Part shown: in pieces, positions 641 through 26,303 of the stretch
Layout: every line of letters begins with the position of its first letter
Numbering within the stretch: the first letter of the stretch is position 1
Origin: Neophaeotheca triangularis
Taxonomy: Eukaryota
Direction of reading: 5' to 3'
Length of the DNA stretch: 64,000 nucleotides
NCBI GenBank assembly: GCA_054600435.1
Contig: BAAIJX010000004.1
Span: 682,001-746,000, forward strand
The notes under the pieces: model-generated
The model's database searches: none
Told to the model about the DNA's origin: nothing
What the model saw: only the letters and a program-made list of their open reading frames with translations
Program-made: the position numbers and the translations under genes

Positions 641-1696
641 ATGATGTCGCCCACCGATAAGGCTACCGGCAAATGCAACACTCCAACTATGGAGCGCTCT
701 ACAGATCGTCGACCCTCCAACGTCCCTCCCCCGAAAGCTGGCAAAGTGCTCTTCACCAAAAAGCCTTTGTCTAAATCTCTCAACGGCACCGTCAATGGGG
801 CTTACGGAACAACATCTTCCGGCACAAAATCTTCCGGCAGAAAGCCCACGCCAGGCTCCACGATCGAGCCAGCCACCGTAGAGCTCCCCATACGCTGGTC
901 TGATGTGGCAGGTGCTCGCAAAAGCACTCATCCTGACGTAGCTCCCATCAAGCGCATTCTAGCCATCACCGAAGTCTGCGAGGCTGTGCTGGTTCAGCTT
1001 TCACCGATCGACATCGTCAAAGCCCGCGTAGTCTGCAAAACTTTCCGCGACGTCGTCGATACCTCGCCTACAATCAAGGAGCTACTGTTCCTCGTTCGCG
1101 GCAAAGAAGTGACCCCTTGGGTCTCTGTCAACAACGGCAGCCAATATTACACCGGCAAAAAGGCAGCGGCAACCCTTGCCACTGCGGACAACAAGCCACT
1201 CAAGATCGTTCGCCCTGTCATTTTTAACCCCATCCTTCTTCTCGGCAGTCGCAAGACATTGGGCCTGAAAGATCGCCTCGAGACCCCATACTCACACCAC
1301 CCCGGACGAAACATCACCCTCGGCCTCGACATGCACAAGCAGTGGAAGTGGTCCGGCTCATCGATCGTGTCCGACATGTACCTCAGCTACCCTCCCGTCA
1401 CCAGTATCTTCTACAGCATCCGTGGGACAGTTGAATCCGAGGGCAACGAGAACCGTGGTGGGCTTCCCACGGCTTATGAGACCCAGTTGGCCTCTGGATA
1501 CATTGAGAACGAGGAGGGCCTAAAATGGCGTGACATTAGCCGTGTTGTTGGTGGCACCGTGACATGCTGCGGGGGCAGGATCGATAGATTCTTCGTAATT
1601 GATGGCTTTAGAGTCACGGTGGGGGAGATGGTTGCTGCGGAGAAGGCTGGAGTGATCGATTTGGATGGGGGTAAGGGTGACGAACACCTTAGGTAG
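641..1696 (+). CDS. F-box domain protein, cluster A copy 1
   Basis: 351-aa ORF with F-box-like segment PIKRILAITEVCEAVLVQLSPIDIVKARVVCKTFRDVVDTSPTIKELLFL. Also carries the family motifs FNPIL, DMYLSYPPVTSI and NEEGLKWRDI shared with neighbouring paralogues. Start codon uncertain. Confidence 0.75.
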   Translation: MMSPTDKATGKCNTPTMERSTDRRPSNVPPPKAGKVLFTKKPLSKSLNGTVNGAYGTTSSGTKSSGRKPTPGSTIEPATVELPIRWSDVAGARKSTHPDVAPIKRILAITEVCEAVLVQLSPIDIVKARVVCKTFRDVVDTSPTIKELLFLVRGKEVTPWVSVNNGSQYYTGKKAAATLATADNKPLKIVRPVIFNPILLLGSRKTLGLKDRLETPYSHHPGRNITLGLDMHKQWKWSGSSIVSDMYLSYPPVTSIFYSIRGTVESEGNENRGGLPTAYETQLASGYIENEEGLKWRDISRVVGGTVTCCGGRIDRFFVIDGFRVTVGEMVAAEKAGVIDLDGGKGDEHLR

Positions 1697-1825
1697 TGTA
1701 GCAGTGCTTATACTGTGAGCGTGTCATAGCTTCAATCATCTATGTAAATTCCGTAGCACTCACCCTTTCGCTCCCAACTCATAGCGCCGTAGGGTGCTAC
1801 CATTGCTAGGCGGCTGCGATTAGGT

Positions 1826-1837
1826 AGTCACGTGACT
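1826..1837. promoter_or_regulatory. Palindromic E-box (AGTCACGTGACT), possible bHLH/Cbf1-type site
   Basis: Perfect 12-bp palindrome containing GTCACGTGAC, about 350 bp upstream of the F-box gene at 2186. Function is inferred only. Confidence 0.3.
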
Positions 1838-2185
1838 CTCTTGGCATTCAACTTACGCACGGACACCCCCTGCTTTCTATCCGTTCTAAACCCCTCTCTG
1901 CTGAATCCTACAACCTTTGACTTTGCAAAACATTGACCAATTTGTGAATCTAGCGCCCGCAGGCATATCTTCACGTATTCCGCTCATTAGTGCGACCTGG
2001 CCTGCATCTTCTAGGCCTGAGCCGGAGGCAGATTGCCTGGACCTCGAACTCGAACGGAGTCGATGCTGACGTTAGTGAAGTTCTCCCGAAGACTAAGGCT
2101 GGTAGCCGGGCCTCCGTGTACCCCTTTCAAGAGACTGAGGTCGGCCGGCTCTGCTTCAACAACCGAAAACAATTTCCCCACCCAA

Positions 2186-3100
2186 ATGGAGAGCGGAAAC
2201 GTCTCGGACCCGGCATCGGCCCCCTTGGTCCCACCAAAGGAACTGCAACTAGCCTCCCAACAACCTGCTCAAGCCGTGACGGATGCTGCAAAGCCCTTTG
2301 AGACTGTCTCCATCGAACTCTTCGAAGCAATCCTGCGCTTTCTCCCCCGCCAAGATATCGTCAAGGCTCGCAACGTCTGCAAAGAGTTCCGCCACAATGT
2401 AGACAACTCGCCCACTCTGCGTCGCGCCATCTTCATCGCCCCAAGCGCCGAGCACATCCGTTGGGTTGCTGAGAAGCAAGAGGGCGAGAACTTGGAAGGC
2501 AACATCGTCTACCCAGCCAGGGGAAAGACACACCTCCGAGCCAAAGGCGGCAAACTCCATACCGGCACCCAAGCGCTTAGCTTGCTCAAAGGCGATCCTC
2601 CCAGAGTGCTCGGTTCCGTGCGCCCGATCACGTTCAATCCTCTTCTCATCCCAGCAGCGAGCCCTGGATGGTTCACCACTCCCGTCTCCACACGACTCAC
2701 AGACTACGTTGACGCCGACAACCAGAACAGCATCAAATTCTCCCGCAACATAAAAGTGCTACGCGCAGGCTTCGCTGCTGGGTGTCCCAAAGATTCCATC
2801 TACATGCGCATGTTCATTACCTCGCCGCCAATTACAAAGCTCGGATACATAGTCCAGGAGTGCTACACGAGAGGAAAAGAGTTGAAGGGCTGGGCGATGC
2901 CGTATGAGAAATTCTACAACGGCTTTGAGACAGTGACCAACGCCAAAGGTGTGATGTGGCCGGATCTCATCGATCCTCTCAAGAAACAGACGAGCCTTCT
3001 CAAGGAGATCCAGGTCACGTTCTTGCTTCAAGAAGGTTTCGAGGTCGACGAAGAGGAGTTGGAGGCGGCTGAGAAGGCTGGATTTGTTCAGATCGGTTGA
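2186..3100 (+). CDS. F-box domain protein, cluster A copy 2
   Basis: ATG at 2186 (MESGNVSDP) is in frame with the 2033-3100 ORF. Contains IELFEAILRFLPRQDIVKARNVCKEFRHNVDNSPTLRRAIFI, FNPLL, MFITSPPITKL and NAKGVMWPDL. Confidence 0.75.
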   Translation: MESGNVSDPASAPLVPPKELQLASQQPAQAVTDAAKPFETVSIELFEAILRFLPRQDIVKARNVCKEFRHNVDNSPTLRRAIFIAPSAEHIRWVAEKQEGENLEGNIVYPARGKTHLRAKGGKLHTGTQALSLLKGDPPRVLGSVRPITFNPLLIPAASPGWFTTPVSTRLTDYVDADNQNSIKFSRNIKVLRAGFAAGCPKDSIYMRMFITSPPITKLGYIVQECYTRGKELKGWAMPYEKFYNGFETVTNAKGVMWPDLIDPLKKQTSLLKEIQVTFLLQEGFEVDEEELEAAEKAGFVQIG

Positions 3101-3736
3101 GGAAACTAACTTGGAGACGGCTGAGGAGGCTGGGTCTATTCGGATCTGCGGAATCGGAGGTTGATTGAGGCGATAGCTGGAAGATGATCTTCGAGTCAAG
3201 CTATTGAGGCGGTTTTGCGGACAGCAGGCTCTTGTACTGCTTCAGTTCCGGCATGTTGTGGCATGGTACAAAATTCGTAGACGGCTCGAAGAACTCGAGA
3301 GAATCTGTTCACTTGCTCTTTCGCATCCCTTATTATATTTGCTTTCTTCCGCCTTTGTCATCTCGAGTTTTGCCCCAAGGCAAACGCCAAGTAATCACCT
3401 GACTCGTTTTCTTCGTCCAGTCACACCCATCTCGCTCGTTCACCTTTCCAAGGCAGAGTCCACCTTCTTGTTAGCCAGGTGCAGCGTGACTTTGAGCTTC
3501 ACGCTGTCGTGATTGTTCACTTGCGCCTCAAGGCATTGAACTATCCTTCCAAACCTGGTCTTTTCCTTCGAATTCAACCCAGCCAGGTAGGGAACCACCG
3601 CAATACCAACTGAACGTTCGAATTGCGCACCTGCTGACCTTTCAAGAAACATCATTGCCAGACCAAGGCCGCCAAGTGCACTCCATCACCTTCTCTCTAC
3701 ACTTCAGCGAACTCAAACCCTGCCATCTGAAGCGAC

Positions 3737-4629
3737 ATGGCACCCCAAGGCTCGTCAGCTACAGACCTAAGCGTTAGTATAAAGGAGTTCACATTCGGCA
3801 AAAGAGACATTCTGACCGCGATTGCCAGATGTCCACTTCACCCGGTCTCACGGTCAAAGCAATGTCGTCTCCGCCACCCATCCAGCGCATCCTAGACGTC
3901 TACGAGCTCTCGGAAGCAGTTCTTCTCCATCTCGGGATTCACGACCTCGTCCAAGCCAGAAACACTTGCTCCAAGATGCGCAACGTAGTCGACACCTCTC
4001 TCCCAATCAAGAAAGCGATGTTCATGGTTCCTGGTGACGACCGCGAGGTCTGGCTAGTAATGAATGAAAAGCACGAGAAAAAGGTCTACACCGGCGCCGC
4101 AGCACTCAACATACGCCAAACTCTCGATGACCCCAAGCACCCAAAAGCCGACAAAAGGGTCTTGCTTGCTGTGCGTCCTGTGTTGTTGAATCCGGTGCTT
4201 CTCCGCGTTGCATCAACGTCGCTTATCTATCACACAATGTCCAACAGCGATACTGCCGAAATAACTCGCGACATGGTCGATCTTCGTAGCCGCATCGACG
4301 ATTTGGTTCACTATCGAGTCTTTCCAGACATCAGGATGGGGGAGCTCGAGGTAGTTCTCGGCGGAACGGGGCTCCGTTATTGCCCAAAAGACTCGGTTTA
4401 CATGTCTATGTTCTTGACAAGCCCACCAATCAAGAGCGTCGCGTGGAACGTACACGGGAAAAGGCCCCTGGTGAACAAGGATGGCCTTCAATGGCGAAAC
4501 ATCGTCGAGTCCTTGAAGCGTTGGGAAGACGCCCCCAAGCTCTTTCCCGGGAAGAAGGATGTTATGGGCATTAACGAGGATCATCTGGCTGCGATCGAGG
4601 AGGAGGTGTTTGCTATTCCGAAATGGTGA
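3737..4629 (+). CDS. F-box domain protein, cluster A copy 3 (probably 2 exons)
   Basis: Main exon 3829-4629 has PPIQRILDVYELSEAVLLHLGIHDLVQARNTCSKMRNVVDTSLPIKKAMFM, LNPVL, MFLTSPPIKSV and NKDGLQWRNI. A probable in-frame first exon 3737-3772 (MAPQGSSATDLS) is joined by intron 3773-3828 (GTTAGT...CTGAC...CAG). Confidence 0.75.
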
Positions 4630-5387
4630 GAACCTTGGCGAATAAGTGTGTTGCGCGGCGAACGAAGGGAAGATGAGAGGGCCAGCACTGGGCGGCGGAC
4701 CGACGAGGATAATCTGCGAAACAGAAATGCCCCCAGCTTCTGATGTTCAAGGGGGACCATGGGGCCGTTCTACTGCGATCAATACCAAGAGAACTGCTTC
4801 AAACCCCTCCTCTTACTTCCATGTCTTGCCAACGATGGCACGTAGTCCTCAACGAGGCACTGTTCCACCCTTGCAATGATCGAAATTAGGGCCGTAGCAT
4901 GCGAAACCAAACAATGCCTTCTGCAAGTCAAGACACAGACCAATTGTCTTCGTCCATCGCATCCTGTCCCATTTCCTTTTGCAAATCGATACCGTCGCCC
5001 TACTCGCTGCCAAGAAATCTCCTGACTCGCGCCAACACATGTGACTCTTGCCGACGTCTCAAAAACCCCTCGCAACCGGCTTGCAAACCTTTGACTTTGC
5101 AAGTAACCAAGCCAACTCACTTTGGTTTGACCTTCTCCGTGGTATCCGTGTACCCGGCCATATCGGTCCAGCTTGAGATATCTCCTCCACCTGAGCGCCC
5201 GGGCTAGGCGAGGAGGTAAGTATTTTCGCTTCTCCGAGTGAAGACTTCAGATGGCCCCCATGTTGACCTTCACAAGAGCCCCAAAGCGCACATCAAGGTC
5301 TTCGACACCGACTTGCGGTGTGAGCTTGAGAGCCACACGCTCGCCCTCTCGCGCTCTCAAGACCAAAGTACCACTACCAAAAACACC

Positions 5388-6236
5388 ATGGACTCCCTGA
5401 TCCCGGCCCTCGAAGGCTTGAGCGTGGAAAGCAGCGGAGACTCAGCCAACAAACAAACCGCAACCAACCGCAGCGAGAACACATCCGGAACAGCCATCTC
5501 AACCGACAAACCCACATCGGCGCCTCCCATTCAGCGCATCCTAAACACCTACGAACTGAGCGAAGCCATCCTTCTCCAGTTTGGGATCCGCGACCTTCTC
5601 AACGCCCGAAACGTCTGCACTGCTCTCCGCAACGTCATCGACACGTCAACTCCACTGAAGAAGCGCCTCTTCCTCACGCGCGACGACGCCGAAGGCCCGA
5701 CCTGGCAGGCCCTGGAAGATTGCGGTGCCATGGCTCCCGGGTCAACAAAGCTACTGCAGGAGCAGGTGGTGGGCCTCCCGGAACTAGGTCACGGGCGGAC
5801 AATGCGCTGCAACACGATCCTCCTCAGCCCGAAAATCAACCGTTACCTTCTCTTCAGCTGCGTGACGAAATTTCGTGAATTGCTGTCAAGGATTCCTATA
5901 GAAGCCTCTGTCTTGCAATCTCGACTGCTCGCGGAAAACTTGCAGGACTCCATCTTCGCGTCGATGTATCTGACGAGCCCGCCGGTCACACGGATTGCTT
6001 ACCATTTCAACGCGCTTGTTGCAATTTCGGGCTCGGGGTCAGGCGAGCCTCACTCTGATGTTCACGGCGAGGTGATAAACAGCGACGGGTTGAAGTGGCA
6101 AGACTTGGTCCACGCCATCAAGCTCGCGATGAAAGATCGTGCCTTCTCTGGCAGCTATGAAGGGCACTTGATGGTGGAGGGCTTCGGCTTCGAGCCCGAT
6201 GTGCTCGCGCGCGGAGGAGCGGGTGCTGTGCCTTGA
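5388..6236 (+). CDS. F-box domain protein, cluster A copy 4
   Basis: ATG at 5388 (ACCATGG context) is in frame with the 5238-6236 ORF. Contains PPIQRILNTYELSEAILLQFGIRDLLNARNVCTALRNVIDTSTPLKKRLFL, MYLTSPPVTRI and NSDGLKWQDL. Confidence 0.75.
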   Translation: MDSLIPALEGLSVESSGDSANKQTATNRSENTSGTAISTDKPTSAPPIQRILNTYELSEAILLQFGIRDLLNARNVCTALRNVIDTSTPLKKRLFLTRDDAEGPTWQALEDCGAMAPGSTKLLQEQVVGLPELGHGRTMRCNTILLSPKINRYLLFSCVTKFRELLSRIPIEASVLQSRLLAENLQDSIFASMYLTSPPVTRIAYHFNALVAISGSGSGEPHSDVHGEVINSDGLKWQDLVHAIKLAMKDRAFSGSYEGHLMVEGFGFEPDVLARGGAGAVP

Positions 6237-7230
6237 TGGTATGGGGCAGCGAAACCACGTCAACCCCGGAGTCTCTACCCACGAGAGAGTCGCGGTGCAG
6301 AAGTCGTATCAAGGGAGACCAGTGACTACGGAGCGAGACGACTAGGAAACGGAGGAGGGGAATCTGTTCGGGGGCGTCTGCGGAGACCTCGGTACGCTTT
6401 CGAGTTGCCAGCGTTGATAGGCACTATCCGCGAGGCCTTTCAGCAGATACGAGTCCATAGCACAGCGGGGCACAGAACCCTGCTTCAACGCAAACAATCA
6501 GTTCATCACGTCCGCTAGTCCTTCCACCCAGCTGTCCAACTCTCCAACCGTATCTTCCGAGTACTTCCTTCCGCGCCCCGTGTCTCCACCACATCCCATC
6601 GACTCGGCATGTCTGTCCAGGCCGAACAGAAAGTCAGAACAAAACAGAAGCACGAGCTTCAAACCCAAGCTTAAGAGAGCCGGAGACGATCGTCAAGGGA
6701 GTATAACGAAACATTGACGAACAACCCTGTTGCTTCAGCTCTAGGGCTCCGGATAAGTGCTAGCGACTAGAGCGTTTTAAGAGATGCGCAAGAAAAGCAG
6801 AGTTTGCAATTACCCTCAAAGAGCCATTCGCGGTGTCGGTTGTAGTCCAGAGTTGAAAGAGAGACGAAACACCAACAAAGCGCCCTCGTACTCGTGCTCG
6901 TGCTCGTAGACTGCAAGCTCCAACTATCCATTCCAGACGAGAAGATTACACGACGGACGACAGAACCCCCCGTGTGGAGGGCAGGATCTTGACGGGGACT
7001 CGAAACGAAGGAAACCGTCGAGACGAGTGGCGGGATTTGGCAAGGGCTTGTAATGCGGTACTCGGTTTGAGCGTTCGTGGCCAAAATGTCAACATCACCC
7101 GACGCCTAGACTTGCTCACCCTGGCGAGAAATGGCAGGAAGTTGTAATTCAGTATCCGGTTCGGAATGGGCAGTTCGTACATTCGTAGCCAAAGACGACG
7201 CCGTCGTCCGCACCCTTGTAATCAACGGAC

Positions 7231-9440: not shown

Positions 9441-9460
9441 CCTCCGAAAAATCAGAGAAA

Positions 9461-10148: not shown

Positions 10149-11038
10149 CTAAGCAAGCTGACCGCGAACGGCACCGGGGACGGCGAGCGAGGAGTGGACG
10201 TCGGCAAAGAAGCCAGCGGGGTTGGCCTCGATCTGGGCGACGTTGAAAGCGGCGCCGGTGTCCTCGCCGTCGTCGTTCTCGATGCCAGTGGTGAAGGGGC
10301 CCATCAGGCAGCCGATGCTGACGCGGCGGTCGTCACCAACTACAACGGGGTTGGGGAAGGCGATGCGGGGAGGACCGGTCTCGCCGGCGGCAGCCTCGTG
10401 GATGTGGGTGGAGGTGTCGGCGGCCTGGGGGAGAGAGGGGGTTAGTGGGTTGAATGCTAGGAATGAGTTTGGGAAGGGGGCGGAGGCTTACGGATTGGTA
10501 GTCACCGCGGAAGTTGAAGATGGTGATGTTGTAGCAGATGGTGTTGGTGAAGGAGTTTAGGCCAATGTCGTAGGTGCCAAAAGCGCCCTGGGATTGGGGG
10601 GGTTAGTGGGTGGTTCTGAAGGGGTAGAGTGCGGAGTTTGGAGGAGCTCACCTCGAGACCGCCGGTGAAGCCGTCAGGGCCAACAACCTGGTCGGGGGTA
10701 GCCTCGATGCGGTAGGTGGAGGTGAATTGGAAGAGACCGTCGTTGCCGTTGTCGGGGCAGCTAGGGGGCTGAACGGCGGGGCAGTCCTTGCCCTTGTCGC
10801 CACCCTTGTTGCCGCCCTTGTTGCCAGAGTAGTCGACGTTTTCCCAACCGCCCTTGGGCTCGGGGTAGTGCTCGAGCTCGGGGTACTTGACACTCTCCCA
10901 GCCGCCGGGGGGCGCGGGGTAGACCTGGCCGTCTTTGGCCTCGTACTTGGGCTCGTCGCCGCACTTGCCGCCGGGGCAGGGGGCGGCGAGGGCAGTGCCG
11001 AAGAGGGCGACGGCGGTGGCGAGGGTTTGGTACTTCAT
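10149..11038 (-). CDS. Secreted CHRD-domain protein (3 exons, 252 aa)
   Basis: Signal peptide MKYQTLATAVALFGTALA. Exons 11038-10652, 10587-10492 and 10424-10149 with canonical GT-AG introns. The spliced product has NTICYNITI...YQS...THIHEAAAGETGPPRIAFPNP...FFADVHSSLAVPGAVRGQL, the fungal CHRD signature. Confidence 0.85.
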
Positions 11039-13040: not shown

Positions 13041-13725
13041 CCATCCCTCCTCAACCCTTTCCCCGCAAACAACAAAATCTCCCGTCAACTCAATCCAAAC
13101 ACCTCCGCCCATGCCCATACCGGGCGGCTCCACGCAAGATGAAAAAGAAAAAAAAAACGCCAAAGCCGCACCAATCGGCCGCTACCCTCACCACCCAAAA
13201 AAGAAAACCTTAGGCGGGAAGATCGACAGTAGTCCGACACCTCTCGAGTCCTCTCCCCCCCCTAGCCGTCTTAATCCAGAAGCAGCCAAGACAGACACAA
13301 GACAAGACGAGACAAGACAATCTATTTCGAGAGCGAAAAAAGCACTATCGCGGATACTAGGTAGGTATAGTAGTACTAGTATTGTGGAGTATAGTGCAGT
13401 ACAGTACAGTACAGTGTAGTAGTACCTTGGAGTACATAGCCAAGCCTACCCGGTACGCCCACCTGCCCCTAGCTCTAAGAAAGCAAGAAGAGGATAAGAA
13501 TAAGAACAAGACCCTATCTACGAGGACAATCACTCGGCGACGTCGCGGCGGTGGGAAATTGTCAGGAGCTTGATTTAACGGGCCAAGCGTAGGTTAGGTA
13601 GGTAAGGTAGGTACCTACTCGTAGTGACATCCACGCCTGCTACTCCTACTAAGACAGCATCCGTCAAAAACGACAGCAACACTTCCCTCTTTACTAACTA
13701 TTCCTACTACTTAGGTACTAGCTTA

Positions 13726-13809: not shown

Positions 13810-14300
13810 GTACCCTACCGTTTTAGGCGTCGTGTCCTAGGTAGGTAAGGTAGGTACTTAAGGCGTCTAGATAACTACCTACCTACCTTACCTACTTAGG
13901 TACTTCTAACAATACACCCGAGGGAAACCCCCCACGTGTCTTGGTAGCGAGGGCAGTGGAGAGCTGCCTACTACCTAGGTTCCCTATGTAGGCTTCTTTC
14001 CGTGCTAGTAATGCATTCCGTTCCCATTCCTATTCTATTCCTATGGAGCGCGGAGCGAGCTCGTGAGTGCGTAAGTGCGTGAGTGAGTAAGTAAGTACAT
14101 AAGTATAGGAGTACGTGAATGAGTGCCGGCGTGCTTACAAGGCGCGCCTACGTGAAAAGTCCCGACTGCCTAGCCCCGACGCGAGCGACTCGGGCGTTTA
14201 TAAGACCCGAATCCCTACAGTCGTAGACGAGTAGAAGCCACGTCTGTACGCTGTAGATAACTTGACTCACCACAAGGTAAGGAGAGGAAAGGAAAGGAAG

Positions 14301-14405
14301 GGTAAGGTAAGGTAAGGTAAGGTAAGGAAAGGTAAGGTAAGGTAAGGTAAGGTAAGGTAAGGTAAGGTAAGGTAAGGTAAGGTAAGGTAAGGTAAGGTAA
14401 GGTAA
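14301..14405. repeat. (GGTAA)21 pentanucleotide microsatellite
   Basis: 21 tandem units, one a GGAAA variant, preceded by GGAAA units. Confidence 0.95.
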
Positions 14406-15094
14406 AGGAAGTTACAGCGGGGGAAAAGAGGACAATGGACAAAGTCTCAAAGGTCTCGGAGTTTCAAAGGAGAGGGCCTGGATGGTGGTCCGGTGGAGGG
14501 TCGAGGTGTGACGGGGGGTTGGTTGGTTTGGTTGGTTTGGTTGGTTTGGTTGGTATTGTAGGTAAGGTAGGTAAGGTACGTAGGTAGACGTCCGACACAG
14601 GATGAACGGGTATGAAACAGACGTGGGGGACTTACGGAGGACCTTTTACTGAGGTCCCCGTCTTGAGATGACTAGCTTACGGTAGGTACGGTAGGTAGGT
14701 AGTGAAGTTCTTGTGTCTTTGATGATGATGATGATGACGGGGGTGGAGCTGGCTGGGGGAAGAGAGAGGAGGGGAGAGAGTAAGAAAGAGGGAGAGAGAG
14801 CCAAGGAGATAAAAACGCCTCGTGTGGCGGACTTCATCGTTCGCTTTCATGACAAAGATGAGTGAGGTATGTAGTTAAGTTGTCTACCTACCTTGATGGA
14901 ATAATAACAGCCAAGCAAAGGAGTGGTTTTGCCTCGGCTAGGTGGGGAAGGGAAAGGCGTGGTAGTCTGTTAGTTCTAGCAAATACAAAGGATCGCGCTA
15001 GTTTACTCTCGCCTCTCGCCTCTGCCAAGCAGGTCTATTGGGTCTTGTCGAGGCTAGCTAGCTCACTAAATCGACACATGACGGTCATCAACCA

Positions 15095-17911
15095 CTATTG
15101 ACTACTACCAGCAAACCACGCGTTCCAATCCAACCTCGTAGCCAATTCTGCCGCGGCTTCAGTAGCTTCATCTTCACCCACGCCGCCGCCGCCACCGTGG
15201 CCGCCAAGCGCAGACTGCGGTTTCGAGAATTTCTGGCTCTGGTCTAGGAGCGCTTGAATCAGCCGCGCCATCGCTGTGTCGAAATCTTCCAAGCTGCCGT
15301 CGCCTTTGTCTCGTTGCGAGGACGAGACTGAAGTTTCCGAGGGAGCTAGAGTGGTCGCCACGCGCAAGATGGTAGCGAGGACATTCTCGACCGCCTCGCG
15401 CAGCCGTTCTTGCTTGCGTTTGAGGAAGAGTCGGGTGCGGATGCGGTCAAGGTAGGTTTCGTGCAGGGAGCGGAGGGTGGAGATGCCTGTGGTGGTGCTG
15501 GTGGTACTGCTGTGGTTTTTTGCTGGGAATGAGGTGGATTTGGAAGAGTTGTATGGGGTTTCGGTGGTGGTTGGTTTCGAGATGGCTGTTAGAGAGGAGC
15601 TGAAGTCTTTCCAGGGGATGCTGATGCCTTCGTTCATGAAAAAGGACATGAGGTGGGAGGCGACGTGGTGGGCGCGATGGGCGAAGCGGAGCTGCTGGGT
15701 TGTGTTTCTTACATGGTGTTGGACTTTGCTGCCCGGACGTCTGAAAGAGACTGCTTTCAGCTGAACAGTGAGATAAACGACTCGTAGGAGTTTCAATAAG
15801 AATCGGAACACTTCGTCGTATTTTTGCATTGCGCTAGGTGTGAGGATGGCGTCGAGGGGAGCAGGTGGGGTGTATTGCAGTCGAAGAAAGTCCAGCGCGT
15901 ATGTTGACTGCACATCCATGACTTGGTCTATCTCTTTATCGCTGAGTTCGCGGATGCTGAAGCTCAATCCACCGGGTAAAGACGTTTCGTCCGCACGCCT
16001 TGTTGGAGAAGTGGTGTTTCCCGGCTGGTAAGCGTCCGTGAGGATACCCATGAGTGTCAATTGTAGCTCTGAACTTGCAGGTGGCCACTGCTGAGAGTTT
16101 CTTGTATTCAGCCGAAGACCCATGGTCTCGCTCGTAGGGATGTTGCCTCGTTTGCGCTGGGCAGATTGCATGTTGGAGCCGAAGAGGGCAGCACTGAGCC
16201 TTGCCACAAAATCGCCGTTGCCCAGAAGTTGGAAGCCATGTTGGAGTTCAAGGTGGGCCTCCAACTTGCAATCGTTGAAAAGGAAGCGTAGGAGATGCTT
16301 ATTGATGTCGCGAGACTGAGTTGACAGCTGAGGTCGCAAGTCGGCGAGAGGACTGTAGTCGGGGGAGGTAGTCAAAAATAGTTGGGGGCTGACCGGAACT
16401 TGACCCCCGTCAGTCAAAGCAATGTCGACAGTGGTGGGAAGCCTGCCGTCGGCATTGCTAGGCTGATCTTCGGGCAGCAACCCGAGTTTGCCTTCGAGTG
16501 CTTGGAAGTACAGCTCTTGCTTGTCATCTTGGGCCCAGGCTAAGCCTTCCAGATCATCCTGTCTCTGGGGAAGATCGCCGGTAGCGAGGGCAAGATGAAG
16601 CGGCTGTGGGGGGGTATGTGGTTGACCATCAACAGCCTCCCAGCTCCCAGCTTCTCCACTACGATGAAGCAGATGCGGCGCGTGGACTCTCAACAACTTG
16701 ATGCTTGCTTTCATCTCCACAATTACCGACCAGTCTTCGCTGTCAACGAAAGCTGGTTTTGGAGCAACATCTCTCTCATCGAAGGAGGTGTCCAAAGCAG
16801 TCGCATCGACGGTATCTCGATCGGAGTCCAGCTGGGGTGCAACTACGCTGACATGACCATCGTCAAGGCCAATATCTTGCTTCAGCCTGTCAAGCCATGG
16901 CGCGCTCACGCGAGCGAGCAAGGCCCGTAGAACCGGTACAAATACGCCATCAGCTTCAACATGGGTATAGACTTGATCCGATAGTCTAGCAATAGCTTCC
17001 TCATCCGAAGTGATACCCGCCGTCACGCTTACGCAATCCTCGAGCAAGCTTAGCAGCTGGGCAGGGCGAAAAACTGACTTTTGCAGCTGCAAGAGGCTGC
17101 GGATGGCTTGAAAATCAGCAGCGACGTTTCGCTCCACAGTGTCAAGCACGTCAGCCAACGCGGCTTTGAACGCGATCAGCGCCGAGCAAGTCTTGTTTTG
17201 CTTAGAAAAAGAGCTGGAAAAGTCTCTGAGTCTTCGTAGTCTTGTACCGACGCCCATGAGATGATCAACGTAACTCTGGGAACATGCGACGCTCAATCCG
17301 GACATGGGAACGTCTTGAAGCGTTTGAACGAAGCAATTCTTACTCACGTTCCATTGGAAGAAGACGGAGGATCGGCCCATTGCCAAGTTGCAGAGGGGTC
17401 TTAGCATAGCATGCTGTGGTAGAACGCCAGCATTGTTGCCACGGGGTTTATGCTGGGCGATAGCTGCATCGAAAGCAGCAGTGCCAGCTTCGGATAGGTA
17501 GGTTGACTTCTCCGAGCTAGGGACATGCTTTCGTTCGAAAGCTTCCCACGTCTTGAGTCGAGGTGCTTGTTCCTTTTCGGGACCCAGTTCGAGCGTCCAA
17601 ACGTCCGGCAGCGAGGATTGGGAGGCATCCTCAAACGGTGCAGATGGGCATGGGGATTCTCGGAGCTCAACCGGCGGAAGCAATGGAGGTTTTGCTGCGG
17701 TTTCGTCGATATTGTCGAGGTCTTCTGGCTCAGGAATACCAAGCTCGAGACTCCCGTCGTACGGGCTCTGCTTACTGCCCACATCCAGGGGCGGCAATTC
17801 CAGGTCCAGTGGTCTGAACAGACTGTCCGTTTCCTCATCAAGCGTGAAACTAGAAGTGACCCATAAACCATCAGTAGCAAAGGCAGATTTGCCTAGAAGT
17901 GAGTCGTCCAT
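15095..17911 (-). CDS. Gamma-tubulin complex component, Spc97/Spc98 family (GCP6-like)
   Basis: Long intronless ORF, first ATG at 17911. Contains GRIP-family segments LEAHLELQHGFQLLGNGDFVARLSAALF, WPPASSELQLTLMGIL and ALDFLRLQYTPPAPLDAILTPSAMQKYDEVFRFLLKLLRV. Confidence 0.85.
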   Translation of the reverse strand: MDDSLLGKSAFATDGLWVTSSFTLDEETDSLFRPLDLELPPLDVGSKQSPYDGSLELGIPEPEDLDNIDETAAKPPLLPPVELRESPCPSAPFEDASQSSLPDVWTLELGPEKEQAPRLKTWEAFERKHVPSSEKSTYLSEAGTAAFDAAIAQHKPRGNNAGVLPQHAMLRPLCNLAMGRSSVFFQWNVSKNCFVQTLQDVPMSGLSVACSQSYVDHLMGVGTRLRRLRDFSSSFSKQNKTCSALIAFKAALADVLDTVERNVAADFQAIRSLLQLQKSVFRPAQLLSLLEDCVSVTAGITSDEEAIARLSDQVYTHVEADGVFVPVLRALLARVSAPWLDRLKQDIGLDDGHVSVVAPQLDSDRDTVDATALDTSFDERDVAPKPAFVDSEDWSVIVEMKASIKLLRVHAPHLLHRSGEAGSWEAVDGQPHTPPQPLHLALATGDLPQRQDDLEGLAWAQDDKQELYFQALEGKLGLLPEDQPSNADGRLPTTVDIALTDGGQVPVSPQLFLTTSPDYSPLADLRPQLSTQSRDINKHLLRFLFNDCKLEAHLELQHGFQLLGNGDFVARLSAALFGSNMQSAQRKRGNIPTSETMGLRLNTRNSQQWPPASSELQLTLMGILTDAYQPGNTTSPTRRADETSLPGGLSFSIRELSDKEIDQVMDVQSTYALDFLRLQYTPPAPLDAILTPSAMQKYDEVFRFLLKLLRVVYLTVQLKAVSFRRPGSKVQHHVRNTTQQLRFAHRAHHVASHLMSFFMNEGISIPWKDFSSSLTAISKPTTTETPYNSSKSTSFPAKNHSSTTSTTTGISTLRSLHETYLDRIRTRLFLKRKQERLREAVENVLATILRVATTLAPSETSVSSSQRDKGDGSLEDFDTAMARLIQALLDQSQKFSKPQSALGGHGGGGGVGEDEATEAAAELATRLDWNAWFAGSSQ

Positions 17912-18919: not shown

Positions 18920-20759
18920 ATGTTTGGTCGCGAGAAAAATCGCGTCGGTTCCATCCAGGAAGCCGGCGACTGGCCTGATGCCTCTTCCGGGGATCGCGGT
19001 GCCGATATCATTCCTGCGGGTGGCGTTGACGAGAATGGTGTTATGGACCTCGACTCTGGTGTCAAGCGCGGACTCAAGAACAGACACTTGTCTATGATGG
19101 CGCTCGCTGGTATCATTGGGCCTGGTCTCCTTATCGGTGCTGGTGGTGCGCTTGCTAACGGTGGTCCTGCGTCTCTGTTGATTGGTTTTGGTGTTATTGG
19201 TATCATTGTATGACGTCTCGATACCCAGCATCATCACTGCAACTTACTAACGACAAACAGGCATTCTTCATCATGCAGTCTCTGGGAGAGATGACTACGC
19301 TGTTCCCTGGTGGTGGCAGCTTCATTTCCATGGCTGAGAGGTTCGTTGACAAGGGTTTCTCGGTCGCCGTTGGCTGGAATTACTTTATCATCTGGGCTGC
19401 TGTCCTGGCCAACGAGTACAACGTCATTTCCAGCATCATGGTCTTCTGGAGCGACAAAATCCCTCTATGGGGCTACTTCCTCATCTTCTGGTTCACATTC
19501 CAAGCATTCCAGATGTTAGGTGTCTCCGTCTTTGGTGAGGCTGAGTTCTGGCTTGCGCTTTTCAAATTGGTCGGTTTGACTGCCTTCTTCATCTTCGCAA
19601 TCATATATGCCGCTGGAGGTCTCATAGGTCAAACCGAACCACTCGGATTCCGTTACTGGGATGACCCGGGACCATTTAACGGCAACGGCTTCCGCGGTGT
19701 GGCGACAGTCTTCGTCTTCTGCAGTACATTCTACGCAGGCGTTGAGTCAGTGGCTATTGCTGCGACCGAGACTCGAAACCCTGGTAAAGCAGTTCCCACG
19801 GCCATCCGGCAGGTCTTTTGGCGTATCGTGAGTGTTCCGCGCCGGCTCCTCGTTCTGCGATAACCCCCAAACTAAACAATATCCAGATCTTCGTCTACAT
19901 GGGAAGCGCTTTCTTCTTCGGCATCACCTGCCCAGCTAATGCCAACGACCTCGTCTCCGCCGAAGCCGAAACTCTGCAATCACCCATGACAGTCGCCATC
20001 CAAACCGCCGGCTGGAACGGCGGCTACAACCTCATCAATGCCTTCATTCTCGTAACCTGCCTGTCCGCCATCAACAGCTCCATCTACATTGGCGCCCGCA
20101 CAATTCTCTACATGGCGCAATCGGGCAAAGCTCCCAAATTCCTCGGCTATGTGAACAAGCAAGGTGTCCCCGTCTTCGCCATCACCTTCACCAACATGGT
20201 CGGCGCTCTGAGCATGATGAACATCTCGACCGGTGCCGCGCAAGCCTACCAATACATCGTCAACCTCTCCGGCGTCGCCGTCTTTCTCGTCTGGGGCAGC
20301 ATCTCTTTCATGCACATCCGCTTCCGCGCAGCTTGGGCCCGCGGCGGCCGTTCCAAAGAAGACCTCCCCTACAAATCCCTCTGGTACCCCTTCAACGCCT
20401 ACTTCGGCCTCATCGTCAACCTCTTCCTCGCTTTCGTCCAAGGCTGGACAACCCTCTCGCCCTTTGAAGCCGGCAATTTCGTCGACGCCTACATCCTGCT
20501 CCCGCTCTTCCCCATCATCTGGATCGTTTACAAATTCTTCACCGTTGAGTGGAAGCCCGTTTGGAAGCTGTACTACCCCAAGCCGATCTTCGGAAAGCGC
20601 ACGCATTTCGTCAGGGTCCACGAGATCGACATTGATAGCGGTCGGAGGACGGATTTGGATAAGAAGGGGCTTACGGATGAGGAGAGCGATGAGGTTGCCG
20701 GTGAGGCGGCGGAGAAGAAGAATCTGTCGTGGTGGAGGAGGGCTTGGAACTTTTTCTGA
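18920..20759 (+). CDS. Amino-acid permease (APC superfamily, yeast amino acid transporter family), 3 exons, 575 aa
   Basis: Motifs KRGLKNRHLSMMALAGIIGPGLLIG, GEAEFWLA, AATETRNP and DIDSGRR. Exons 18920-19207, 19261-19827 and 19887-20759 join in frame via GT-AG introns. Confidence 0.93.
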
Positions 20760-21026
20760 TCTACGGATGGGAAGAAGAGAGGGGTTTCGGGGGATGAGTT
20801 TCGTCGCGAGGTCGATGCTGGATTACGTGATGTGGGCAGAAGGTTGTGGTGGTGTTGATGGTGGTTTTTGCAGGTGCTTTCGCTGATGACTTTGGATGCT
20901 TCACGACCGGTTTCGTTCGATTGTAGATACACAGAGGTGCCTAGGTGCACTTACCATTGACGATTTGCTATGAAGGCCCCTTGCGCTGTTCTCTTTTGAT
21001 ATCCGATCGAGCGAGCGATGGCTCCA

Positions 21027-21185
21027 GGCAGTGGCCTCACCGTGGCGAGAGCGGGAGAGTGAAACGAAACGAGGTCAATTAGCGCACCCAATGAGAGAGG
21101 AGGACCGGCAGTGGCCTCACTGTGGCGAGAGCGGGAGAGTGAAACGAAACGAGGTCAATCTAGCGAACGTAATGGGAGAGGAGGA
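21027..21185. repeat. 80-bp tandem duplication
   Basis: GGCAGTGGCCTCAC(C/T)GTGGCGAGAGCGGGAGAGTGAAACGAAACGAGGTCAAT occurs at 21027 and again at 21107. Confidence 0.9.
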
Positions 21186-21713
21186 GATGCGGTTGACGTA
21201 TCTGATGTGCGAGGAAGTGTCGAGATCACGCGGTGCCGCCATGTTCAAGCTGCTATACATGAAGGCCTCTCCCACTACTGGTCGTCGGACCGAGCGAGCC
21301 GTGGCTTTTCGCAGTGCCAGGTTTCAGGATGAGCAGGCCAATGAAAGAAAGACAAGGTCGATTACGCGAACTAAATGCAAAGAAGAGGAGGTGCCAATGC
21401 TTTGCTTGACGCGGGAGGAAATCCCGAGAAGACGCACTTGAAGTTTTGAAGATGCTCGTGCAAGTGGTTTGGATTGCTTTGATGGCTGGTGGGGGATGCT
21501 GTGGACTACAAAGGCAGCGTGATAACGATCAGCCGCACGCTGCTGTCCCTCCAAATATCACCAGGCGTTCTGTTCCTTCTTTTTCGGAGCGTCTGACCGC
21601 GTCTGCCACTATGGTTCGTTCTCCGCTGAGGTGCAAGGGCCCTGTGCATTGTCTTTTCGTCCAGATCTTTCCACTGAGCGTCAGAATCTGGCCAGCGGAT
21701 GGGGGCCACACAT

Positions 21714-23312
21714 TTAGAACCCCCTGGTTTGGCACCCGCCAAGAATTCCCCTCTCCTCCACTTCGATGAGTTCAACCAATGTCACGACACGGTCGCCCAC
21801 AGCGAATATATCTTTTATCTTCAGGTTGTGATTCACTCTCACAGCAAGCTCGACTTCCACGGCCTTGCAGACATCCTGGTACGTTACGCCACCCTGTGCT
21901 CTAACTCGGACCATTTTGGTAGTATAAGAGCAGTCCCACTCGCTCTTAGATGGATCGTAAAGGAATACGTCGATTCTAGTGACCGGGGGTTGAGTCAAAA
22001 ACATCGAACAACACAGTAGTGGCTTTTGCGATTCCATGCCCCCAATAGGCCCGGACCAGGAACGGAACATCTCCAGACGAATCCAATTCGACTTCGAATC
22101 CGACAACGAAATGTGGTCGATGCATCCTCGCAGGATGTCCCATTCCTTTACTTCAAAGAGCAAGGGATTCAGCAAGGCGGGAGAGAAGACATAAATATCC
22201 GGATCCTTCAAGCTCACGATGGAACTGGAAGGGAATCTGTGGATGAATTCCGCTGCCTTGTCGCCGTAGTAGACGATGCCGTTCTTCTTGTCGTACGCCC
22301 AAAGCTCCTTCGGGGCTGCCTTGAGGAAGAGAACTGTCTGGAGAATGTCTGGGCCTTTGATGACGTTGCGCAGCTTGTGGCAGGTGGCAGACGCGCGGAG
22401 CAGCGGGAGCGGTCGCAAGTGCGCCAGGATCTTCTCGCACAGCTCTGTGGTGTTGAAAACCCGAGATACCGCAGTCGTGACGATGAGAGGGTTGTGATTC
22501 GTGCCAACAGCAGGAAGAGCAGGTTGCTTGCCCGCCCTTATGATGTCCTCGGCCTCGACGATCCACCGACCGCTGGCTTCCATGCCGTGGAGGGCGACGT
22601 AGGTGTTGTCAGGCAGAGTTCGACTCACGGATACCGCAGTCTCGCAGACGTCGCCGTAGGTCACTCCCATCTGGTTCAACACTATCCACTCCTTCTTCTG
22701 GCCGGAACACATAGTAGTGATACGGATCTCTGATACTGGCGGCTGAGTAACGTACATCGATCTGTGGACGGAATCGACCGGCAGCTTCTTGAACCCCTGT
22801 CTCGACGCAGCGCGGAAGTGATGATGTAGCTCAGGCTGATACGTCCACCAGTCCACATATTCTTTGATGCACGCTGGATAGAAGATCAAGGGGTTCACGT
22901 AGAATGGGTTGGCAGATGCGAGCTTGGAGAGAGCGGTATCGATGACCAATTGACCATGAATTCGGTCAGCAAGCTCGGACGCTGTGGAATGTTCCCTTAT
23001 CTTCCTCCATTCATCCAAGGAGAGTTTGCCCGAGACAGCAGGCCGAAGAAAGAGCTTGGTTTGGAGGATTGTTGAACTTTGAATGATGTCGCGGAACTTG
23101 TGGCAAGTGGCCCACACGCAGAAGAGCTCGAGAGGCGACAGGTGGGCGAGAATCTCCTCGCAGAGCTCGAAGGTGTTGAAGACGCGAGAAGAGGCAGTGA
23201 TGACGATGAGCGGGTTGTCGTTGGTCGCGGGTGAGGTCAAGCTCAGGTTTGGAGGTGGATTGTCGGTTGCGGAGAGGGAGGCGTCCTTGTCGTCACCTGG
23301 TGGTGAGGCCAT
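21714..23312 (-). CDS. F-box protein with two tandem F-box + C-terminal modules (cluster B)
   Basis: 532-aa uninterrupted ORF. Module 1 is NPLIVITASSRVFNTFELCEEILAHL...MYVTQPP...NQMGVTYGDV. Module 2 is NPLIVTTAVSRVFNTTELCEKILAHL...MFLTQPP...QGGVTYQDV. Confidence 0.8.
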   Translation of the reverse strand: MASPPGDDKDASLSATDNPPPNLSLTSPATNDNPLIVITASSRVFNTFELCEEILAHLSPLELFCVWATCHKFRDIIQSSTILQTKLFLRPAVSGKLSLDEWRKIREHSTASELADRIHGQLVIDTALSKLASANPFYVNPLIFYPACIKEYVDWWTYQPELHHHFRAASRQGFKKLPVDSVHRSMYVTQPPVSEIRITTMCSGQKKEWIVLNQMGVTYGDVCETAVSVSRTLPDNTYVALHGMEASGRWIVEAEDIIRAGKQPALPAVGTNHNPLIVTTAVSRVFNTTELCEKILAHLRPLPLLRASATCHKLRNVIKGPDILQTVLFLKAAPKELWAYDKKNGIVYYGDKAAEFIHRFPSSSIVSLKDPDIYVFSPALLNPLLFEVKEWDILRGCIDHISLSDSKSNWIRLEMFRSWSGPIGGMESQKPLLCCSMFLTQPPVTRIDVFLYDPSKSEWDCSYTTKMVRVRAQGGVTYQDVCKAVEVELAVRVNHNLKIKDIFAVGDRVVTLVELIEVEERGILGGCQTRGF

Positions 23313-23987
23313 GGTGAGGCGGTGGTGGACTTCAACTAACCAGGTGTCAGCGGAGATGCTTACTGGTGTTGGAGCGCAAGTGAAGTCACTGACCTGTATT
23401 AAGAAGCTGATACCGCAGCACTGGCCAACGTCGTAATGTGGAAGATTACCACTGCGAACTGGTGTTGGGTGAAGAAGGTGAAAGGTATAAAAGTCGAAGA
23501 CTTGGGGCTTTTGTTACCTGAGGTGGTCATAGCTGTGGGCGCGCTTCACTGCTCCGCCGTGCAGGCCCTTACCAACAACTCTAGCCCAAATTCAGGGGCA
23601 AGCGGCCCGAAATGGGCACGCGTGGTATGCTTTCACTTGCAACACCCATTCACGTGCAGCCTCTGTGGCCGTTGACACTTGACCGCCGACACTTGGCCGC
23701 TTTCTATTGTTCTAGATCTGCTTTTCCCTTTCCTCCTCTTTAAAAGACTACTTCCAATCGTAGCCTTCTTGGTAGATTATTGCTTGAGTTGGAACATAAC
23801 GGGGTAAGTGATTTCTCCTTGGTTTTTTTCGTTGTCAACACTTACATAGCCCGACGCTGTCTCGGGACTTCTACATCATATCAGAAGCCAAAAGGCGATT
23901 CCTTTGAGCATCTACGCTCGCAAGAGTTTGAGAAACATTTTTCTTCGAAAAACCGCCCAACCCTTTACCCCCCTGAATCTTCTCACC

Positions 23988-24749
23988 ATGGCCGACCACG
24001 CCCCAAAACACCATGGACCCGCAGAGATTGCCCAGGGCATCACCAACAAACTCCAGCAGACCTCTCTCACCACCGACATGACTCACTCCACCACGAACCC
24101 GAACCCAGTCTCAACCGCTTCAACCGCTCAAGACCGCGTCTTCAACACCACCGCGCTCTGCAAGGCCGTTTTCGAAAAATTCAGCATGAAGGATATTCTG
24201 CGCGCGACTCACATCTGCAAGCACTTCCGCAACGTCGTTCACAACTCGCCGAGCCTGCGTATCAAAATCTTCCTCAGCGCTGACACCGAGTTTAGCAAGA
24301 CTTGGACGGTCGAGCAGTGGCCAGGTCCTACCTCGTATCTTTTCAATGTCTACTCTGGAGAGGGCGAGCGATTCGACATGCTCCGGAGCAAGCTCGACGA
24401 GAAGGCAGTGGAGGCAAAGTAAGCTGAGGTAAAGGAAGCTGAGGCGAGGGAGGCTCATACGAAAAGATCCGAAGTTGAGAAGGCTACGGAGGGGAGGGCT
24501 AGAGCGAAGAATGCTCGGGTTGATCGGTACGATTTAGATCGCTTGGAGGTGATCGCCGAGGTGGGGCGCAAGCTTGTCGTGCACGAAGAAGAGATACGCT
24601 TGGCATCCTGGGCCCGTTGGCTCCGACGTATTGAGAAGCGATCGTCACTTCGAAGCGACTTCCGGGCGCAGCCATGGCGAGAGAGCGAGTATCCAAAGCT
24701 GGGTACATGTCATTTGTCGGCCGGGGTACGATCAACTTTGCTCTCCTGA
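23988..24749 (+). pseudogene. F-box gene interrupted by an in-frame TAA (cluster B)
   Basis: ATG at 23988 and F-box DRVFNTTALCKAVFEKFSMKDILRATHICKHFRNVVHNSPSLRIKIFL. TAA at 24420-24422 lies in a local repeat (AAG TAA GCT GAG vs AAG GAA GCT GAG), and the same frame stays open to TGA at 24749. Confidence 0.6.
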
Positions 24750-25310
24750 GCGCTTAATCTCTTTCTTCTTTCAAAAGTCCAGACAAGAAGGACCACGCGA
24801 GCGTTCCCAAATTGCCCAGGGTCAACATAGGTGCGTAAGGCTGCGTCGGCGACAGCCTTTAAAATTACATTTAGTATTTGGCCGCATCAAGATATAAAAG
24901 CACCTACGTGCAATATAGACATCTTCGAAGATATATTGTGGGTCTGATTCTATTTCTCTCTGGTCTAGTGAGACACGCAGATCGAGTGAGACAAACGCAC
25001 TTAAGCATGCCTCTTCCTAAATAACCCGCCATTCCTGCCTTGGCGAACAAGACTGTATGCTTTGGCTGCACGTGACCGGGCAGGAGTTTGTTGTCCCAGC
25101 AAGATGCATATAGGACCTCCGTGCCTGCTGTAAGCTTGCAGCTCCCAATTCTTCTGGTCCGTCTCTCTCACGCCTCCGGCAAGCTCTCGCCTCCGCAGCA
25201 GCGGATAACCATGTGATCGACTACCCCGAGGTGCCAAACCGCATGGTGTCATGGCCCTCCCTTCCGAAATGAGAAGTTTGCCGAGTGTCAAGCCTCCAAT
25301 GCATCAAGTG

Positions 25311-26303
25311 TTAAACATGCGGCAGGATATCCAAAAACTGGAGGCGGTCGTGCTGCTCTATGTCCCGCACCTCCTCCATCGAAAGCACAAAACACGATCG
25401 CTTAGATCGCAATGAGAGCTTTACCACTAATGGTGAGTCTTCACAATTTTCCCTCCCCTCTCCGGTAATAGTTCCAGGCTTGGTCGGTTGCGCTGATATG
25501 ATATCCTCCAGTTTGACACCAGCATCATTGGTCACCTCGTAGAATACCGAGGGTTTGCTGAAGAACCAAGGGTAGAGGGCAACAGAGGTCTCCGGTGGCT
25601 GAGTCAGGAACATTGATCTATGCATAACGTCGCCTTGGGGTAGCTTGAGGACATCGCGTGGGAGACAGATGTAATTGTCCCTGCTGCCTGTAGCATCGGC
25701 GATGCGCTCGTGCAACAAGGGCCACCACGCTGCTTTCAATACTCTCAACCAACCAAACCCAGGAGACAACCATTGGCTACGCAAGGGTATTCTGTCTGCT
25801 AGCAGGCTACACGCTGGGTGACAAAGTGCAGGATTACAGATCGCTGGGCACACCTCATAGAAGTCAAGCTGTTGGGTTTCGGAGGTGCCATCCTTCTTGA
25901 GGGTTCGTTTGAGTGACTCGGCGATAGTCTGGTTGTGGATGGTGTATGAAGCCATATCCCACCGACGATTGCGCTGGACCTCGATGGTCCAAGTCTTGCC
26001 AGCAGTAATGCTGCTCTCAGGCTCAAGGAAGATCTTCGTGCGCAGGGATATGGAGCCAAGGATGACATTGCGGAAATTCTTGCAGACTCGGGTCATTCGG
26101 ACGACCTCCTCCACATCGGCTTGCTCAAAGATGGCCTCGCAGAGCTCGGTGGTGTTGAAGACTCGAGTCCAGGAGGGCGTGGCATCTGAGCTTTTGATCG
26201 AGCTTGGTTGTACCATTTCAGTGTCCAGGTAGACCTTCCGGGCCACGCGGGTGCCTCGCGTAGAGACTTGAGCTTCGTTGGACTGGACGACGTTTTTGGA
26301 CAT
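25311..26303 (-). CDS. F-box domain protein (cluster B)
   Basis: 330-aa ORF with WTRVFNTTELCEAIFEQADVEEVVRMTRVCKNFRNVILGSISLRTKIFL, CNPAL, HRSMFLTQPPETSV and NDAGVKLEDI. Confidence 0.8.
   Translation of the reverse strand: MSKNVVQSNEAQVSTRGTRVARKVYLDTEMVQPSSIKSSDATPSWTRVFNTTELCEAIFEQADVEEVVRMTRVCKNFRNVILGSISLRTKIFLEPESSITAGKTWTIEVQRNRRWDMASYTIHNQTIAESLKRTLKKDGTSETQQLDFYEVCPAICNPALCHPACSLLADRIPLRSQWLSPGFGWLRVLKAAWWPLLHERIADATGSRDNYICLPRDVLKLPQGDVMHRSMFLTQPPETSVALYPWFFSKPSVFYEVTNDAGVKLEDIISAQPTKPGTITGEGRENCEDSPLVVKLSLRSKRSCFVLSMEEVRDIEQHDRLQFLDILPHV

Follow-up and report, generated by a model that had tools for sequence, protein, structure and literature searches.

The 64-kb window analysed here, that is, the whole stretch of Neophaeotheca triangularis contig BAAIJX010000004.1 (assembly GCA_054600435.1) from position 682,001 to 746,000, carries two clusters of F-box genes between its positions 641 and 26303. 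The window was scanned for open reading frames (ORFs) and the six-frame translation covered all 64 kb. The clusters consist of seven uninterrupted ORFs, A1-A4 in cluster A and B1-B3 in cluster B, which together encode eight F-box modules, seven of them complete (Table 1). Cluster A is arranged head-to-tail with all of its genes on the forward strand, and cluster B has mixed orientation. A hidden Markov model (HMM) of the family matched 7 pieces and 8 domains in the six-frame translation at E<=10, and beyond the seven ORFs there is no further match at this threshold anywhere in the 64 kb. The count of seven loci and eight F-box modules in 26 kb that had been given in a first-pass annotation of this DNA is therefore correct. 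All seven proteins are present in a public collection, where they derive from an 825-kb NCBI contig; the genes are thus already annotated, but unstudied.

Table 1. F-box genes of the two clusters and their parts (window positions; aa, amino acids; bits, score of the Pfam F-box match)
Feature	Position	Strand	Description
A1	641-1696	+	351 aa; ORF; F-box 23.5 bits against a cut-off of 20.5
A1, N-terminal parts	~896-961 (pre-F-box motif)		disordered N-terminus; pre-F-box motif, residues 86-107; F-box, residues ~108-150
A1, C-terminal alpha/beta domain (predicted)	1088-1693	+	residues 150-351
A2	2063-3100	+	345-aa ORF; F-box 22.3 bits; C-terminal domain with MFITSPP and GVMWPD
A3	3829-4629 (ORF); 3738-4629 (with extra exon)	+	266 aa; F-box 22.2 bits; MFLTSPP, GLQWRN
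A4	5388-6236	+	282 aa; F-box 17.5 bits against a cut-off of 20.5; MYLTSPP, GLKWQD; family HMM E 4e-45
B1	21714-23312	-	532 aa; two complete modules in a single frame; F-box 42.8 bits, 2 stretches
B1, modules a and b	22518-23312 (a); 21717-22517 (b)	-	two family HMM domains, E 4e-48 and 1e-50
B2	23988-24422	+	144 aa; truncated copy with the F-box only; transcription divergent from that of B1
B3	25311-26303	-	330 aa; under both Pfam thresholds; MFLTQPP; family HMM E 3e-46

The database model of A2 (P0004) has 304 aa and starts at Met42 (nucleotide, nt, 2186), and that of A3 (P0005) has 278 aa, with an extra first exon of 12 codons (3738-3773) followed by a 55-nt GT..AG intron (3774-3828). In B1, both modules (referred to below as B1a and B1b) combine an F-box with RVFNT[TF]ELC and M[FY][VL]TQPP. 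In B3, a long insert separates the NPAL and MFLTQPP motifs. B2 is the degenerate copy that the first-pass annotation had implied, being truncated both as an ORF and in its coverage by the family HMM, which is limited to positions 34-123 of 307. Its in-frame TAA (24420-24422) is followed by 109 open codons (24423-24749) that are rich in Glu, Arg and Ala and coiled-coil-like, and in which the C-terminal motifs of the family are absent. The sequence GTAAGC overlaps the B2 stop codon, and an unannotated intron or a read-through form is possible there.

One architecture in both clusters

The alignment of the eight modules reveals the same plan in clusters A and B. In the N-terminal half, a variable and probably disordered N-terminus is followed by the F-box, a conserved Trp, NP[LIV]L and a stretch of variable length; in the C-terminal half, M[FY]LTxPP[VI]T is followed by a beta-hairpin, then by G[VL]x[WY]xD and finally by a C-terminal helix (E..A.E..G). 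All seven complete modules accordingly have an F-box and then an alpha/beta domain of ~200 residues with NPLL, M[FY]LTxPP and GVxWxD. The window has seven matches to M[FY][LVI][TS].PP, one per complete module and none elsewhere, which read TSPP or SYPP in cluster A and the family-consensus TQPP in cluster B (B2 lacks the region). As this motif is found in every complete module of both clusters, A and B are one family and not two separate inventions. A pattern search of the window also placed the four motifs listed in the first-pass annotation where they had been reported: PI.RIL has three matches (A1, A3 and A4), G[LV].W.[DN] seven (four within A1-A4), RVFNT[TF].LC four (B1a, B1b, B2 and B3) and TQPP five (three in B1a, B1b and B3, none in B2). 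Its description of the middle regions as barely alignable was equally apt, paralogues being 20-33% identical over alignments of at least 160 columns.

All seven ORFs have a Pfam match to F-box or F-box-like (E 4e-11 to 1.2e-2), in agreement with their earlier designation as F-box genes, and four of them (A1, A2, A3 and B1) pass the PF00646 gathering score. Among the aligned family members, 103/139 match PF00646 and 105/139 match PF12937 at E<=0.01. When the family profile was compared with PDB sequences, 15 chains were matched at E<=1, and 14 of these are F-box proteins by molecule name, including FBXO22 (2.5e-4), FBXW11, FBXW7, beta-TrCP, Cdc4 and Skp2; the remaining one is labelled lysine-specific demethylase 2B. 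The best of these matches all lie inside profile positions 63-106. Four F-box positions (E111, L112, E114 and S142 in A1 numbering) are each conserved in at least 90% of the 139 sequences, and the predicted A1 model has helices at residues 110-118, 122-129 and 133-141 of the F-box with a predicted local distance difference test score (pLDDT) of at least 95. The same level of conservation (at least 90% of the 139) is found in the C-terminal core for M246, P251, P252 and G293, and the MFLTQPP of the C-terminal domain is among the most conserved residues of the family.

Directly before its F-box, A1 carries the motif WSDVAGARKSTHPDVAPIKRIL. The pattern R/H-WSD[VI]AAxRKSTHPDxAPIK is present in 22/151 family proteins, namely A1 and 21 proteins of other organisms (P0008, P0009, P0010, P0012 and P0014 among them), and its longer form reads R/H-WSD[VI]AAxRKSTHPDxAPIKRILDT. 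A 16-row alignment shows no variation at its residues W, S, D, R, T, H and P. This motif could extend the Skp1/cullin interface or be a basic-Ser/Thr phosphorylation site. The PI.RIL of A3 and A4 is a remnant of it, and A2 has lost it. A1 looks ancestral in type, and we infer that an A1-like gene gave rise to cluster A. The A1-type subfamily also has WEDRRGLPKW downstream of MFLSQPP.

A predicted C-terminal domain and its family

The model of full-length A1, predicted from the 139-sequence alignment, has a mean pLDDT of 76.2 and a predicted template modelling score (pTM) of 0.71; most of the core exceeds a pLDDT of 90, disorder is predicted for residues 1-63, and 65 residues score below 50. 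Modelled alone, the C-terminal part (150-351) is a mixed alpha/beta domain with a pLDDT of 83.8 and a pTM of 0.78. Foldseek returned no match in the PDB at E<=1e-3 for either the whole A1 model or the domain alone, and with VIA-align, run against 48,161 representative chains, the whole model reached a best Z of 2.8 and the domain one of 3.0, with no chain at Z>=5. As the best Z of models with no clear match is typically 7-8 with this method, the result is unusually blank. The C-terminal domain is therefore confidently predicted and matches no solved structure among the PDB chains searched, which does not in itself prove a new fold.

Pfam models hardly cover this domain either. Among the window ORFs, only B1 exceeds the gathering score of DUF6699 (PF20415), a family of unknown function: the match, of 28.5 bits against a cut-off of 24.1, is in module b, over MFLTQPP...GVTYQDV, and spans profile positions 27-74 of 131. 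The likeness to DUF6699 ends there, as only 2/139 family members match that model at E<=0.01, so that it does not describe the family. A full-text literature search on DUF6699 gave nothing beyond one unrelated mention. The C-terminal part of B1 had no usable match among the named clusters of the ESM Atlas once F-box clusters were set aside, and literature searches found no paper describing the family or its C-terminal domain. It is the domain and the family that are new; clustered F-box paralogues in a fungus were already known.

To place the eight modules among other proteins, their profile was scored against 1.84 billion cluster representatives, of which 5186 belong to the family at E<=1e-3, 849 at E<=1e-10 and 12 at E<=1e-30. 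Seven of these last 12 are the window's own proteins or, for B1, a near relative. In 138 of 151 retrieved proteins (91%), a single HMM stretch runs from the F-box through the C-terminal motif. About 15 of the 151, predicted proteins from other organisms, have two F-box modules, and adjacency or fusion of copies is therefore a recurrent habit of the family. The species-named members are all Dothideomycetes (6/6): Pseudocercospora fijiensis, P. eumusae, Sphaerulina musiva, Cryoendolithus antarcticus, Oleoguttula mirabilis and N. triangularis itself, for which a record identical to A3 is titled 'hypothetical protein [Neophaeotheca triangularis]'. In the ESM Atlas, A1 lies near clusters labelled 'F-box domain-containing protein', their commonest phylum being Ascomycota. 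At 90% identity all window copies are singletons, and their closest relatives in the family share ~30% of residues with them; in a word-based protein search for B3, the sole match among 845 candidates was B3 itself. The same kind of search with a 55-sequence profile gave at least two matches among the 8000 candidates listed. Scanning metagenomes with the 16-row alignment of the A1 subfamily yielded 239 pattern matches, and one locus was confirmed, where the family member is solitary within 13 kb.

Age of the copies and genomic context

Ten paralogue pairs were compared by the Nei-Gojobori method. The proportion of differing silent sites (pS) is 0.55-0.76 in 10/10 pairs, and the corresponding distance (dS) ranges from 0.98 to undefined. 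Silent sites are thus saturated in all ten pairs; the duplications are therefore old, and the ratio of replacement to silent change (dN/dS) between paralogues is not estimable. The copies are old, recent birth-and-death not being shown, and the continuing birth of copies suggested in the first-pass annotation is not seen among them. Likeness at the DNA level is left only in the 5' F-box parts: 939-1080, 3872-4013 and 5521-5662 share 61-70% nucleotide identity, the cluster-B F-box starts at 22420, 23143 and 26122 share 78% over 46 nt, and 24135-24236 is 71% identical to 26064-26165. Gene conversion was considered for the stretches of 40-46 nt in which the F-box starts of cluster B share 78-80% identity, and was rejected; amino-acid constraint suffices to account for it, as third-position identity at the conserved codons is 0.38-0.58 in all pairs.

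Phylogenetic analyses were based on a tree of 139 rows (LG+G4, quick) and one of 55 rows (C20 with posterior mean site frequencies, quick). Two sister pairs emerge in both, A3 with A4 (Shimodaira-Hasegawa-like approximate likelihood ratio test, SH-aLRT, 96 and 92) and B1a with B1b (93 and 88), and A1-A4 group together along with one fragment, P0141 (87-89 and 81). Monophyly of B1a, B1b and B3 was not rejected by the approximately unbiased (AU) test (p-AU 0.921), and the search constrained to it even improved on the quick free tree by 42.84 log-likelihood units. The data are compatible with a local tandem origin of each cluster, which is not firmly shown. The tandem paralogy assumed in the earlier view, in which each cluster looked like its own local expansion, is supported, with the two sister pairs and the result for cluster B in its favour; the clusters share one architecture and are not two families.

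A 530-aa protein of a related organism, P0002, encoded on a 2.2-kb contig of another assembly, has the same two-module fusion as B1 and no stops. The two are identical at 459/526 aligned residues (87%), but the differences are unequally distributed: module a is identical at 247/263 positions (93.9%), with 16 differences (6.1%), and module b at 212/263 (80.6%), with 51 differences (19.4%; Fisher p 5.8e-6 against module a). The most changed part of B1 is the C-terminal domain of module b (151/196 identical, 77%). This reveals unequal constraint within one gene, module b changing about three times faster, and is the only hint of uneven selective pressure that we have. On a comparison of proteins alone, the speed of module b could equally reflect relaxed or diversifying selection.

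Both clusters sit in a neighbourhood of housekeeping genes, which encode Spo7, Spo71, a gamma-tubulin complex component, a Ctf18-like AAA protein, an amino-acid permease and a cyclin. The GC content is even (0.49-0.58), and AT-rich blocks are absent. The gamma-tubulin complex component (15095-17911, reverse strand, 938 aa) has best non-self matches of 56%, 40% and 35-38% identity, with named relatives from Teratosphaeriaceae sp., Friedmanniomyces and Elasticomyces. As even this housekeeping gene lacks close relatives, the genome comes from an isolated, sparsely sampled lineage, which limits every argument from a missing close homologue in this window. The description of the F-box genes as fast-diverging finds no support here, the lack of close relatives being equally true of the gamma-tubulin complex component.

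The only notable non-genic repeats in 1-27000 are an (AAGGT)n microsatellite of ~190 nt (14244-14438), with GGTAAGGTAGGT-type short repeats at 13589, 13832 and 14558, and a 53-nt direct repeat in the interval between the amino-acid permease gene and B1, the copies of which (21027-21079 and 21107-21159) are 98% identical and 80 nt apart. A 178-aa ORF on the reverse strand (10502-11038), with an N-terminal signal-like hydrophobic stretch, Gly/Lys/Pro-rich repeats and no Pfam match, may encode a small secreted protein. Some 30 kb from the F-box clusters, a 392-aa ORF on the forward strand (56418-57596) combines a BTB/POZ domain (E 6.7e-6) with a long tail of low complexity, and is possibly another gene of a cullin-adaptor type.

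Possible functions of the family

The seven genes belong to one large unstudied F-box family, whose members are probably FBXO-type substrate receptors of Skp1-Cul1-F-box (SCF) ubiquitin ligases with a family-specific recognition domain. That they act as SCF adaptors, with what this entails in Skp1 binding, ubiquitin-ligase function and substrate recruitment, can reasonably be inferred. Each protein consists of an optional N-terminal WSD..RKSTHPD..PIKRIL, a divergent F-box and a compact alpha/beta domain of ~200 residues (NPLL, MFLTQPPV, GVTxxDV); the F-box would dock it on Skp1-Cul1 and the C-terminal domain would bring the substrate for ubiquitylation, and most of what distinguishes the copies would be found in the loops of variable length within that domain. 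By default, the substrates are assumed to be endogenous regulatory targets. The local repertoire would have grown via old tandem duplications in a core, gene-dense region of the chromosome, with B1 arising from one internal duplication or fusion and B2 from the loss of the C-terminal domain. No Skp1 is encoded in the 64-kb window.

Such proteins resemble FBXO-class SCF substrate receptors in having an N-terminal F-box of ~40 residues followed by a domain that is neither WD40 nor leucine-rich repeat (LRR). The best solved sequence match is human FBXO22 (PDB 29hg_A and 8s7d_D), but it stops at the F-box (profile positions 65-97), and the C-terminal domain of the family has no match in sequence or fold to FBXO22 or any other solved chain. 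Grr1 (LRR) and Cdc4/Fwd1 (WD40), as far as the available parts of the sources describe them (PMC7991009, PMC9548119), share with the window genes an F-box and a presumed SCF context, but they are conserved single-copy regulators, whereas the window family is multi-copy and has a C-terminal domain of its own.

Several observations weigh against this reading. A4, B2 and B3 fall under the PF00646 gathering score (E 4e-3 to 1.2e-2), although by alignment they are homologous to the rest. The F-box of the family does not begin with the usual Leu-Pro (its consensus is nT-tEL-E-IL, and the Pfam alignments begin at profile position 6-12), and Leu-Pro at the start of helix 1 is a usual Skp1 contact; the aligned segment of FBXO22 (NLAEVVERVL) likewise lacks it, so that Leu-Pro is not strictly defining. 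No solved F-box chain was among the matches of the structure searches, which mainly probed the C-terminal domain, so that the evidence for the F-box fold comes from sequence and predicted helices. Resolution of the trees is poor, with few branches starred, and B3 sits on a long branch beside or near P0106. Finally, in a comparison of likelihoods, shallow searches (-fast, LG+G4) gave lower values for constrained trees, -33017.7 with cluster A, -33043.2 with cluster B and -33058.0 with all seven copies held together, against -32972.2 for the free tree.

Some of these observations would fit an F-box-like helical cap working outside SCF, in which the N-terminal helices stabilise or regulate a C-terminal domain with binding or catalysis of its own. 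The divergent F-box without Leu-Pro, scoring near or under the Pfam thresholds, would then be expected, as would the prediction of F-box and C-terminal domain as one compact unit (the pTM quoted above being reached despite the 65 low-confidence residues) and the place of MFLTQPP among the most conserved residues. We nevertheless regard such a cap as unlikely, since the PDB profile matches are F-box proteins in all but one case, the best of them, FBXO22, doing without Leu-Pro as well, and since the conservation of E111, L112, E114 and S142 suggests a shared partner. That the genes are decaying or non-functional duplicates, or annotation noise, is extremely improbable. B2 is indeed truncated, and three copies are sub-threshold in Pfam, but six long frames have stayed open despite saturated silent sites, the family motifs are kept in all 7 complete modules, and the relative of B1 is open over 530 codons at 13% protein divergence. 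Intact frames of 266-532 codons, along with this stop-free relative, argue that the genes are maintained.

The first-pass annotation suggested a non-self or antiviral surveillance repertoire. On such a reading the clusters would be a variable set of SCF adaptors, shaped by birth-and-death and by diversifying selection, and would recognise foreign proteins, whether mycoviral, toxin or non-self. Tandemly expanded F-box families of nematodes and plants are the precedent, for which Thomas in 2006 reportedly built a case on site-specific positive selection. Tandem clustering of seven F-box genes within 26 kb, the great divergence of the copies and the truncation of B2 are what such a repertoire could look like, and the singleton status of the copies at 90% identity, the failure of B3 to find a word-sharing relative and the excess of changes in module b of B1, fastest in its C-terminal domain, could be read in the same way. 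By comparison, the available part of one source gives ~31 F-box proteins and no clusters for Macrophomina phaseolina (PMC7991009), and that of another gives 60-90 F-box proteins for filamentous fungi (10.1101/349894). However, recent, ongoing tandem duplication, a trait of surveillance-type repertoires, is not what the saturated silent sites of 10/10 pairs indicate. The missing close orthologues are shared with a housekeeping gene and so reflect an isolated lineage rather than fast evolution, the C-terminal core motifs are conserved across the family, the N-terminal motif of A1 is strongly conserved in 21 proteins of other organisms, the only other locus recovered has a solitary member, and the faster module b could just as well be a redundant copy under relaxed constraint. 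Surveillance of foreign proteins is therefore speculative, with no direct support, and seems to us very unlikely. We give slightly less credence still to a more specific version, in which these are Dothideomycete-specific SCF receptors with a previously unseen recognition fold, whose tandem arrays and fusions form a diversifying panel against foreign or selfish proteins (mycoviruses, toxins or incompatible nuclei); if it were true, such diversification would have left its first trace in the three-fold faster second module of B1.

The clustering as such is an ordinary case of gene-family growth. Tandemly expanded F-box families are known from Agaricomycetes, nematodes and plants, and the window genes resemble them in combining tandem paralogues and a conserved F-box with a divergent remainder. 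The available part of the report on Agaricomycetes describes 67-1,199 F-box copies per genome, arising predominantly by recent tandem duplications and developmentally regulated (10.1101/349894); the expansions there are mostly recent, unlike the old duplicates of this window.

The substrate-binding domain is the basis on which F-box proteins are classified and understood, and in the FBXO-type receptors proposed here it is a confidently predicted domain, without a solved relative or a useful Pfam model, that defines a family of hundreds of distinct lineages. Its named members include both plant-pathogenic and extremotolerant Dothideomycetes (Pseudocercospora, Sphaerulina and rock-inhabiting black fungi), and identifying the substrates of the family would give access to a branch of ubiquitin signalling in fungi that is so far unstudied.

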